IMG/VR virus record: IMGVR_UViG_3300025073_000989
Length of the DNA: 64,000 bases
Direction: 5' to 3' (one strand)
Source: a virus
Lineage: Duplodnaviria; Caudoviricetes
A model generated the notes under the pieces. That model did not search any database. It was not told the DNA's origin and saw only the letters and a list, made by a program, of their open reading frames with translations. The translations under genes were made by a program, and so were the position numbers. How positions within the stretch are numbered: position 1 is the stretch's first letter; each line of letters begins with the position of its first letter. Shown piece after piece: positions 1 to 37,872 of the stretch.

Positions 1-107
1 TGGAAAAATCGCCGCCGACGAAAGATACAACGCGCTACGACCTTCTGGCTAAGAGATACCAACCAGGTCGGCGGGCCGTAGCACATCCCTGTGCTACTTC
101 AATGCTG
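1..107 (-). mobile_element. Left end of an insertion element (IS607/IS605-like, runs off the window); 45-107 is identical to 30294-30356
   Basis: 63-bp exact repeat, GC-rich, with hairpins GTAGCACA-GGGA-TGTGCTAC and CGAC-CTGGTT...AGCCAG-AAG-GTCG; interrupts an AT-rich ORF after ...GATGCCAGC. Confidence 0.7.
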
Positions 108-29882: not shown

Positions 29883-30113
29883 TTAACCCTGTGTCAAAAG
29901 CAGCTCTATCATGCACTCACGTAACATATAGACCACCTCGTCATCGTCCATATCACGATTAATCGTCGTCCCTCGCCCGAGGTACTTGTACCAACTTACG
30001 CGAATATCACGCCACGCGAAATTGAACTCCTGCTCTTCATCATCGTTCCAAGAATACGCATGTGCTTTGAATTTTTCACCATTGAATTGTACTCCTGTGT
30101 TGCTATCGGAGTC
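29883..30113 (-). pseudogene. C-terminal part of a conserved-looking phage hypothetical gene (NTG...AYSW...FNFAWRDIRVSWYKYLGRG)
   Basis: 77 open codons directly after the mini-element, no own start; more GC-rich than flanks. Confidence 0.6.
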
Positions 30114-30117
30114 GTCG

Positions 30118-30293
30118 GCTTAAACTAAGGCATCGCTTTTCAGCGGCCGGCTAAAACGTCGTGTTTTAGGCCTTAGTAGCGATTTTCCTGTTTCAACCCG
30201 ACCCCTATTTTCGGGAATCGCTTCCCTATCGTCAAGTGGTTTTGCCGGTCCACAGGCTTTAGTTTCTCTCTTATTAAGAGATAAACTTCCCGC
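30118..30293 (-). ncRNA. Putative TnpB omegaRNA (reRNA) scaffold
   Basis: GCGGGAA..AAAGCCTGTGGA..GTTGAAACAGGAA pattern typical of tnpB 3' ends; helices CCTGT/ACAGG, GCGATT/AATCGC, ACTAAGGC/GCCTTAGT, CTAAAAC/GTTTTAG, CGCT-GAAA-AGCG. Confidence 0.55.
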
Positions 30294-30355
30294 CTGGCTA
30301 AGAGATACCAACCAGGTCGGCGGGCCGTAGCACATCCCTGTGCTACTTCAATGCT
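30121..30355 (-). mobile_element. 235-bp non-autonomous element (left end + TnpB omegaRNA-like right end, no ORF), flanked by AGC at both junctions
   Basis: Left 63 bp identical to 45-107; removal restores GGA CAG CCG ACG (G-Q-P-T) in the interrupted gene. Confidence 0.65.
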
Positions 30356-30395
30356 GTCCAAAACACATTTGACCAAGTTCAGGTTTATATTTCAC
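30354..30395 (-). pseudogene. 5' fragment (VKYKPELGQMCFGQ) of the gene interrupted by the mini-element
   Basis: GTG start with GGAGG RBS; the frame stops immediately inside the insert. Confidence 0.6.
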
Positions 30396-36329: not shown

Positions 36330-37375
36330 TAAAAATATCCCTCTAAATATGACATTATTTTATCTTTGGATAGGTCTGAAGGATCCATACCACTTTCAGT
36401 TATAAATACTGGAATCAACGGTTTAATATTACCATTTAGTTCATTAAAAGACGCAATAGTCCCTTCTACTCCGGCCTTGTCACCATCAAAAAACAAAACT
36501 ACGCCTTTAGGGGCATTTGCATATAGAAGAATCCTCTGGTACTCTGTTACAAAAGATCCCATAATAGCCACTACGTTTCTTATACCATACTCATACAAGC
36601 GCCATACACTCTTAAAACCTTCAACAACAATAATAGGTTTGTTTGTACAAAACTCCCTAGCCTTGTCTAAGTTATACAAAGTTCTATCTTTATCAAAACC
36701 CGGCGTTAGTTTATATTTAAAACTTGAGTCTTTTATGTCGTTATTATCTCTAGTATCCCTTAAACTATAAGCGCGCAGTTTACCATGTTCGTCTCTTATA
36801 GGTATAATGTCTCTAATTATATTATTATAATCTTTATAGCCACCGGCAACTTCAAAGTAATCCAAAGTAGCTTCTTTAAACCCATCCTTTATAAACATTA
36901 AAGACCTAAAGGGCTTAAATTGGTTAAGCGAATCCTCATTTACTATAGGGGGCTTATTGTCTACTTTTTTAACAATTCTGAGAATGCGATCTGTCTCTCT
37001 ATTCATTTTAAATTTAGAAAACTCTTTACTAAAATCACCTATAGCACCAACTAAACCCTCTAGATAGTGAACAGCCGACATAAAATTAGTTTTATGAACA
37101 GCCATTATTAGGCCTATAACATCATAACTAAAAGATTCATGACATTTATTAGTAAAACAAATCCAGGTACCTGTTTCTTTATTAAACCTAAAAGCTGATT
37201 TATTATCACCACCGTGTATTATACAAGCACATCTAATTTCTTTATTAGAATCCCTTTCTATATCAAAACCAAGAGATACTAGAAGATAGTTATAGTCTAC
37301 TGCCAATTTTAAGCATTCTAGTTTATGCTTAAGTTCTAATCTAGCTTCACTATCAATAGAGTTGTTGATGCTCAT
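36329..37375 (-). CDS. dnaG: DNA primase (CHC2 zinc finger + TOPRIM); annotated ATG lies inside the IS right end
   Basis: C..H..D....F....W.CF..C, IIPI.D, LYN, VVEG..S, FFDGD.AG, DP.D. Confidence 0.9.
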   Translation of the reverse strand: MSINNSIDSEARLELKHKLECLKLAVDYNYLLVSLGFDIERDSNKEIRCACIIHGGDNKSAFRFNKETGTWICFTNKCHESFSYDVIGLIMAVHKTNFMSAVHYLEGLVGAIGDFSKEFSKFKMNRETDRILRIVKKVDNKPPIVNEDSLNQFKPFRSLMFIKDGFKEATLDYFEVAGGYKDYNNIIRDIIPIRDEHGKLRAYSLRDTRDNNDIKDSSFKYKLTPGFDKDRTLYNLDKAREFCTNKPIIVVEGFKSVWRLYEYGIRNVVAIMGSFVTEYQRILLYANAPKGVVLFFDGDKAGVEGTIASFNELNGNIKPLIPVFITESGMDPSDLSKDKIMSYLEGYF

Positions 37376-37872
37376 CGGGCACCGCCCGACGATTTCAGTT
37401 TACCTTCCTTCAAAGGTATCTGATTTAGGGGAACGTCAATATGCCCCACGGTCGAAACTCTGTCTTCGGCCGTTTGCTCATAAAGAAACCAAGCATTCGC
37501 GGATATATTAAAAGCCACGTTGGCATCTCTATGATCAAAGTGTCCACAAGAGCACTTGTAGTGCTTACCATTTGGTTTGTTGATGCTTCCACAGCGCGAG
37601 CAAACCTGTCTTGTATAAGCTGGATTTACAAACACTACTGGCACTCCAAGCAAAGTCGCCTTGTATTTGATGAAGGTTTCCAACTGATAAAAAGACCATT
37701 GAGATTTCTGAACATAGCTCTTGGCTTTACCTTTCTTGGAAATCTTTCCCAAATCCTCTAATACTATGGCGGAACGATGTAGTTTGGCGTAATCAACTAT
37801 GGTTTTGGAAACTTTATGGTTAATTGTAGTTTTCACTGGTGGTGCTCCTTTAGATGTTGTTAAAAAATACAT
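37372..37872 (-). pseudogene. tnpB: TnpB C-terminal remnant (RuvC-II, Zn finger, RuvC-III), N-terminus deleted
   Basis: NHKVSK.IV, IVLEDL, WSFYQL..FI.YKA, VNPAYT...CS.CG, C.CG..DHRD.N.A.NI. Confidence 0.9.

Follow-up and report, generated by a model that had tools for sequence, protein, structure and literature searches.

A protein-less segment of 247 bp in a phage genome, located on the minus strand at positions 30352–30106 of the window, was identified as a left-end fragment fused to the right-end/omegaRNA part of a tnpB-only element. The window is the whole 64,000-nt stretch of DNA that was analyzed, corresponding to the minus strand of positions 203342–267341 of a 268,764-bp virus record (269-kb phage, here termed G000). 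The assignment is based on identity to full copies of the element and on a covariance model (R1) built from relatives. A parent of 1.8 kb, which carries tnpB but no transposase gene, is found as a full copy at the end of the same record. Comparison of the two shows the mini-element to be a non-autonomous deletion derivative of this parent. It is probably a crippled remnant, selfish DNA that has decayed recently, and not a functional gene for a guide RNA.

Results and Discussion

The segment stands out from its surroundings with a GC content of 50% compared to 34% for the window. Its predicted RNA fold is exceptionally stable (z = −4.25) and none of 200 shuffled sequences folded equally well, so that the strongly structured, protein-less character described in an earlier note on this DNA is borne out. 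When the insert was compared with the whole record, two further matches were obtained: 63 nt with 100% identity (G000 267235–267297, i.e. window 107–45) and 122 nt with 99% identity where the record ends. The first one covers window positions 30356–30294 (E 4e-27) and comprises the motif CAGC and a left-end fragment of 59 nt (30294–30352, minus strand), in agreement with the 63-bp left end that had been proposed. The second match, window 30263–30142 (E 8e-58), belongs to the 3' end of tnpB, as the hallmarks noticed previously had indicated. A tnpB ORF lies between both matches and runs off the record end. Using two complete right ends from other contigs (L006 and L130), the identity extends over window positions 30263–30106 with 98.7% in 158 nt. 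Only two positions in these 158 nt differ between mini-element and parent, one of which lies in a GNRA loop (G/A). Such low divergence is compatible with a recent origin, and equally with selection on the RNA.

The right end of the element was determined from the three copies. All share the sequence ...GTTTAAGCCGACGACTCCGA, and divergence sets in only beyond it, after CTCCGA, where the mini-element continues with TAGCAAC, the L006 copy with AGGAATT and the L130 copy with GATTCAC. The same tail is kept in relatives at about 50% TnpB identity (GCCGCCGATTCCGA, GCCGCCAACTCCAA), and two related copies, L008 and L127, likewise diverge directly past it. The divergence of the three copies and the conservation of the tail therefore place the right end at 30106 and set the length to 247 bp, 12 bp more than the 235 bp first reported. 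AGC had been described at both junctions. The triplet is indeed present at 30355–30353 and at 30120–30118, but the right one is internal and does not represent a junction. The right flank that had been read as the guide, CGACGACTCCGA (CGACGACTCC, 12 nt), turned out to be conserved scaffold tail.

The alignment with the parent reveals the composition of the mini-element: the 59 nt of the left end are joined at a deletion junction (30294/30293, minus strand) to the last ~170 nt (172) of the parent, and an 18-nt palindrome replaces the parental ATT. The deletion took out a tandem repeat, the tnpB promoter and 368 codons, leaving 51 codons at the end of tnpB. Also lost is ACCGCGAGGAGC, the part that forms 5' strand and loop of the first hairpin conserved in the scaffold. 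The derivative arose by loss of everything from left-end nucleotide 59 to the middle of this hairpin and by gain of the palindrome. Within the left-end fragment a hairpin GTAGCACA-GGGA-TGTGCTAC (30346–30327, minus strand) can be drawn; inspection by eye showed a GGA-containing loop with differing stems at the same place in relatives. Directly beyond the junction follows GCGGGAAGTTTA (30282–30293, minus strand), which has ACCGCGAGGAGC ahead of it in the parent and comprises a linker and the 3' strand of the first scaffold hairpin. The palindrome TCTCTTAATAAGAGAGAA (30264–30281, minus strand) comes next and, according to alignment, R1 model and fold, forms a hairpin with an AAUAA loop 8 nt ahead of the omegaRNA core (30185–30256, minus strand). 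The core is succeeded by the scaffold 3' domain (30120–30184, minus strand), which includes the tnpB stop codon TAA (30123–30121), and by the scaffold tail GCCGACGACTCCGA (30106–30119, minus strand) as the true right end.

The record holds a single copy of the mini-element. A search for an exact scaffold 26-mer gave no match in viral contigs other than this one and a single match among metagenome contigs, to one that carries a full copy; further mini copies at different sites, as a sign of mobilization, were not returned by this search, which may not have covered records very near this genome. The exact left-end pattern gave no match in viral contigs, and close DNA relatives were not found in the phage collection searched.

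The parent is composed of the left end, a tandem repeat of 45 bp, a promoter and a tnpB gene for 419 aa, with the omegaRNA scaffold overlapping the ~55 final codons of the latter; the element ends 14 nt past the stop. Its CAGC (107–104) and first 103 nt lie at the start of the window (1–107, minus strand), and the copy extends beyond it (G000 267239–268764). The domains HTH_OrfB_IS605, OrfB_IS605 and Cas12f1-like TNB were detected in the TnpB protein (Pfam), the complete 419-aa form of which is encoded on the ENA contig L006. The catalytic residues D180/E264/D344 are invariant among 20 relatives. The parent that the earlier note had called for was found, and it encodes a TnpB. The rest of contig L006 is 100% identical to G000:269–5812. 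The copy on L130 (metagenome contig Ga0208863_1000334) and the G000 copy share 1527 nt at 100% identity, and the other 6 kb of this locus show no similarity to the G000 phage. Judged by these comparisons, the element is real and recently mobile, with occurrence in at least two genetic backgrounds. The record stops within the parent's right end, probably because the assembly broke at the sequence repeated in the mini-element. A single-protein search for TnpB loci in viral contigs found none, and a scan of genome contigs with the TnpB alignment revealed only relatives of 33–40% identity, four of which are weak matches to the scaffold model (20–24 bits).

Several further features of these loci were recorded. 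The tandem repeat between left end and tnpB promoter (L003 1624–1725; G000 ~267358–267459) occurs with two units in G000 and L130 and with one unit in L006. In G000, the full copy interrupts a 51-codon ORF (MGRVTEFF...SVDAS). The first letters of the record itself are the ATG of an LRR-like ORF of 101 aa (G000:1–306, L131), which would be in frame with the interrupted ORF if the record were circular and the right end abutted the LRR-like ORF; neither relatives of this ORF at the record start nor contigs encoding it were found. The L130 copy (368–1930) adjoins a truncated Ogg-HhH glycosylase gene, and about 6 kb away (L130 7592–8056) an RAYT-like Y1_Tnp ORF and a TIR-metallophosphatase-PNP fusion protein are encoded. 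A motif TCGNCGGC is conserved upstream of tnpB (L006 85–95; ~48 nt before tnpB in L008 and L127) and is complementary to the right-end tail GCCGNCGA. Motif and tail show matching changes between clade members, and the complementarity lies only weakly above shuffles (reached by 7–13 of 500 in four of five elements and by 56 of 500 in L007). The mini-element lacks TCGNCGGC. A second, unrelated TnpB remnant of 166 aa is situated at window 37372–37872 on the minus strand, between dnaB-like and primase-like genes (TNB domain, E 3e-20). No sequence match exists between it and the element, consistent with the previous statement that the ends of the mini-element are unlike this IS605 remnant at 37.4 kb.

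The consensus fold of the scaffold was derived from six relatives. Overall, 96% of the cells are paired and 17 of 32 pairs exhibit compensatory changes. These values were reached by 0 of 500 shuffles, and sliding the partner by 1–3 columns left only 33–41% paired; the covariation support that had been proposed as a check is therefore given. Model R1 recognizes the mini-element with 129 bits (E 6e-29) over 30281–30106 and matches the parent and L010 as well. A structured omegaRNA is thus found at the tnpB 3' end, running to the right end. The only notable match in Rfam is RAGATH-18 (RF03064), described as the core of the reRNA of IS607 TnpBs (PMC11061315). It scores 32.7–35 bits in mini-element, parent and two relatives, below the cut-off of 44.9, with 32.7 bits (E 3e-4) for the core of the mini-element, which can accordingly be called RAGATH-18-like; helices 3–7 are supported by covariation. 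The 3' domain alone folds as the three-way junction with GAAA loop that had been described, with a CGCU-GAAA-AGCG hairpin (ensemble frequency 0.62, z = −3.35), and all five pairs of helix 9 show a compensatory change. In helix 2, a pseudoknot, the GGAG loop of the first hairpin pairs with CUCC of the tail, covarying as GGAG/CUCC vs GGAA/UUCC.

It is the first hairpin (ACCGCGAGGAGC..., GGAG loop) that is missing from the mini-element, and GGAG occurs nowhere in its 247 nt. The AAUAA loop of the new palindrome cannot pair with the CUCC tail. Model R1 aligns the palindrome at the position of the lost hairpin, for which it may partly stand in structurally. In CboTnpB, DNA cleavage is disrupted when either half of the pseudoknot carries substitutions (10.64898/2026.03.11.711047). 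In ISFba1, mutation of PK2, the equivalent long-range pairing, impaired RNP formation, and disruption of PK1 abolished cleavage (PMC11061315). Since the GGAG-loop hairpin is gone and the pseudoknot was required in both systems tested, which are other TnpB orthologues, the RNA of the mini-element most likely serves the parent's TnpB poorly, or not at all, as a guide. Its description as essentially a guide-RNA scaffold was overstated.

The mini-element interrupts a small, conserved phage gene of unknown function (phrog_26933). The 5' fragment (30353–30395, minus strand) has a GTG start, encodes MKYKPELGQMCFGQ plus 1 nt and is 64–79% identical to the N-termini of homologues in viral contigs; it is preceded by the ribosome binding site GGAGGA (30406–30401, minus strand). 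The 3' fragment (29883–30104, minus strand; SNTGVQF...SWYKYLGRG...TQG, then stop) has no start codon of its own. Relatives of this frame are encoded at 31 viral loci, and its assignment to the gene is supported by alignment. Full homologues are ~119–150 aa long, begin with M..YEPELGQMxFGQP and carry ~35 residues before ..PFxNTG... In the window only the first 14 codons and the part from SNTG onward are retained, the insertion being located after CAGC in codon 15, and the missing middle is absent from the whole record. Neither removal of 235 bp nor of 247 bp joins the N-terminal frame to the conserved C-terminal frame. Since ~35 codons are also gone, the host gene is broken and could not be repaired by excision. 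The earlier note had seen an in-frame G-Q-P-T restored by excision. Its upstream frame was right, MKYKPELGQMCFGQ being the true N-terminus of the host gene family, but the two frames are not joined, and the GQPT readout stems from the bases CG ACG that happen to occur in the scaffold tail. An alternative start of the downstream gene at GTG 30366 (MFWTA...) was also considered and rejected, since the homologues place the true N-terminus at GTG 30395 in another frame.

Upstream of the gene, a 60-aa ORF (phrog_24346; 30567–30385, minus strand) and a promoter-like site (30638–30610, minus strand) complete a small operon that reads through the element. The site (TTGACG, 17-nt spacer, TATATT) is sigma70-like in 10 of 12 positions by consensus match only, and coincides with the promoter assigned previously. 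The 60-aa ORF reaches with its last codons over the GTG of the interrupted gene (30385–30395), which suggests that translation of the two was coupled in the original operon. A transcript of the operon from the promoter-like site would include the mini-element, with most of the scaffold followed by the guide.

With respect to the target, the left flanks of the three independent insertions read GGACAGC/, GCCAGC/ and TGACAGC/(C), so that CAGC is found in three of three. All copies have it ahead of ATTGAAG, with one extra C in between in L130. Flank position −5 differs between otherwise identical copies, placing the CAGC motif at or outside the element boundary. At the mini-element it abuts the left end at 30353–30356 (minus strand). 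CAGC is therefore retained as a candidate TAM, as suggested in the earlier note, and insertion sites elsewhere agree with it. The guide of TnpB corresponds to the flank directly 3' of the scaffold (PMC11061315; 10.1101/2023.11.20.567912). On this basis of TnpB biology, the predicted 20-nt guide of the mini-element is TAGCAACACAGGAGTACAAT (30086–30105, minus strand), beginning TAGCAACACAGG..., in place of the one proposed before.

Target DNA of 0.1–0.3 kb is missing beside the element in all three insertions (right-end junctions: window 30106, L006 1518, L130 368). At the mini-element site these are the ~35 host-gene codons. In L006, G000:1–268 is absent, and the 7-nt filler AGGAATT joins the right end to G000:269. 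In L130, the first ~100 codons of the Ogg-HhH glycosylase are absent; a homologue of this gene, a potential empty site, does not occur in this phage. Secondary right-end deletions, recombination between nearby copies or a DNA-replacing mode of insertion may account for the loss.

How far the mini-element might nevertheless be functional has to be weighed against decay. A working guide-RNA gene, with a transcript that is loaded in trans on the parent TnpB and cleaves insertion-free phage genomes, either for its own inheritance or to the harm of competitors, would be in line with the sense orientation behind the promoter-like site, the largely intact and nearly parental scaffold, the hairpin present where the first scaffold hairpin belongs and the intact TnpB encoded in the same genome; PATE-type elements with trans-used omegaRNAs have been described (PMC10055086). 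With the corrected coordinates we regard this as doubtful. The 5' pseudoknot half is lost and cannot be supplied by the new loop, while the pairing is critical in CboTnpB and ISFba1, and one copy only is known. Moreover, the present right flank is not the sequence following CAGC in the intact gene. Due to the loss of ~35 codons, an uninterrupted allele would not present TAM and target together, unless a second CAGC preceded the target, which renders the previously suggested supply of an omegaRNA in trans for homing questionable. Less probable still is a route in which the tnpB-only element spreads among phages without a transposase of its own, replacing target DNA next to a CAGC site, with the mini-element as a by-product whose RNA, equipped with the replacement hairpin, might still arm TnpB against rival phages. 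It is brought up because adjacent target is lacking at all three insertions and because the copy identical over 1527 nt lies in DNA unrelated to the phage; repair of TnpB-made breaks by copying the element in would be one possibility within it. For the preferred reading as a decay product, any transposase that moved the mini-element would have come from outside the phage.

The two remaining explanations concern the type of element. An IS607-family mini-element, moved by a serine recombinase via a shared AGC core and carrying the guide CGACGACTCC, would explain the two AGC triplets and the best Rfam match, RAGATH-18 being a reRNA core reported only next to IS607 TnpBs. However, the 12 nt past the right AGC are common to all copies and conserved in relatives, and with the corrected right end the junctions read ...CAGC/ATTG and ...TCCGA/flank without a shared core dinucleotide. 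No Resolvase (PF00239) match was found in the 268,764-bp record or beside eight relatives, and in all eight examined contexts of the ~50%-identity clade (Nitrosococcus chromosomes, plasmid-like and phage-like contigs) tnpB occurs without any tnpA. The RAGATH-18 score stays below the Rfam gathering score here and in the relatives, and the nearest solved structure to the parent TnpB is ISDra2 TnpB (E 4e-49, residues 2–374) vs ISFba1 of IS607 (PDB 8IAZ) with E 2e-23. With recombinase, core, RAGATH-18 score and TnpB proximity all failing, IS607 membership is not supported, and we consider this origin highly improbable. An IStron-like, self-splicing insert, whose RNA removes itself so that the interrupted gene is still expressed, is hardly credible. 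It would profit from the sense orientation within an ORF and from the fact that removal of 234 nt (30352–30119), a piece ending in G, would join MKYKPELGQMCFGQ to P-DDSDSNTG... in frame. This junction was chosen post hoc, though, any junction having a one in three chance of frame, and ~35 conserved codons would still be absent after splicing. Group I introns gave no match even with E up to 10 for the region and E up to 1 for the full copy, and the relatives of the element lie between genes. A specific model, a group I intron of 268 nt with P1 AAAUAU/GUGUUU and an in-frame junction, was dropped, as the second copy showed that the repeat does not include the 30 nt preceding CAGC, and as no intron was matched in Rfam.

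For classification, the parent displays HTH, OrfB_IS605 (RuvC) and zinc-ribbon TNB domains with the D-E-D triad, a conserved motif (CAGC) directly 5' of the left end is present at each insertion, and the mini-element has kept both ends without a protein gene, similar to PATEs or MITEs. Y1_Tnp gave no match in the phage record. The RAYT-like Y1_Tnp lies 6 kb from the identical L130 copy, and the GGA-containing-loop hairpins at both ends in relatives are suggestive only. The best classification of the element is within the IS200/IS605 superfamily, as a tnpB-only member with an IS1341-like gene content, an ISDra2-like TnpB and a RAGATH-18-like scaffold core.

ISDra2 TnpB/omegaRNA (IS200/IS605; PDB 8EXA, 8BF8, 8H1J) is the best structural match for the parent TnpB and shares a scaffold overlapping the tnpB 3' end, a guide from the right flank and a TAM abutting the left end. 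It differs in its TAM, TTGAT compared to the candidate CAGC, in that TnpA_Y is lacking here from both element and genome, and in that the RAGATH-18 model responds to the present scaffold but not to the Deinococcus control genome. The IS607 TnpB/RAGATH-18 reRNA of ISFba1 (PMC11061315) resembles the present RNA in a core of ~72 nt with matching outer stem, internal stem and UGAA-type junction, in comparably sized 5' and 3' flanks (37 and 64–79 nt) and in a pseudoknot linking the far 5' region to the guide-proximal one. In contrast, the score here is below the Rfam cut-off, the protein match is much weaker (E 2e-23) and a serine recombinase is lacking, whereas the reported TAMs are AGGAG or GAGGG and the reRNA of ISFba1 starts only after the end of tnpB. 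PATE-like, protein-less IS200/IS605 derivatives with omegaRNAs used in trans are known from Geobacillus stearothermophilus (Meers et al., PMC10055086). They share with the mini-element both ends, the absence of a protein gene and an omegaRNA region dependent on the TnpB of another element; here, however, a single copy is known, it resides in a phage genome, and the 5' scaffold hairpin and adjacent target DNA are gone. For CboIStron mini-IS constructs, 40 bp of left end and 60 bp of right end suffice for mobilization (10.1101/2023.11.20.567912). The present unit of 59 + 188 bp could thus retain all cis sites, and the CboIStron scaffold also has a first stem-loop pairing with the 3' end. Unlike CboIStron, the mini-element contains no group I intron and is accompanied by no TnpA_S.

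Conclusion

The mini-element is one more PATE-like remnant, a kind already known, found here in a phage, as a single copy and damaged. The earlier observation is partly confirmed and largely right. Its interpretation is partly supported, and the core idea withstands the refuting conditions set in the note itself: it was right in kind, a TnpB-derived protein-less scaffold element next to a CAGC motif, wrong on right end, guide, core and family, and probably too generous on function. The locus is a clean natural example of the decay of a TnpB element to a protein-less unit, with parent, deletion junction and target gene side by side. It also shows a TnpB clade, with ~50% identical relatives on Nitrosococcus, plasmid-like and phage contigs, travelling without any tnpA, and supplies for this clade a candidate CAGC TAM and a covariation-supported scaffold model. 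In addition, it holds a practical lesson for such scans: a single copy does not suffice to define where a TnpB element ends, as here 14 nt of scaffold at the right end had been mistaken for flank and guide. Of all observations, only the repeated absence of target DNA next to the element could open up something new.
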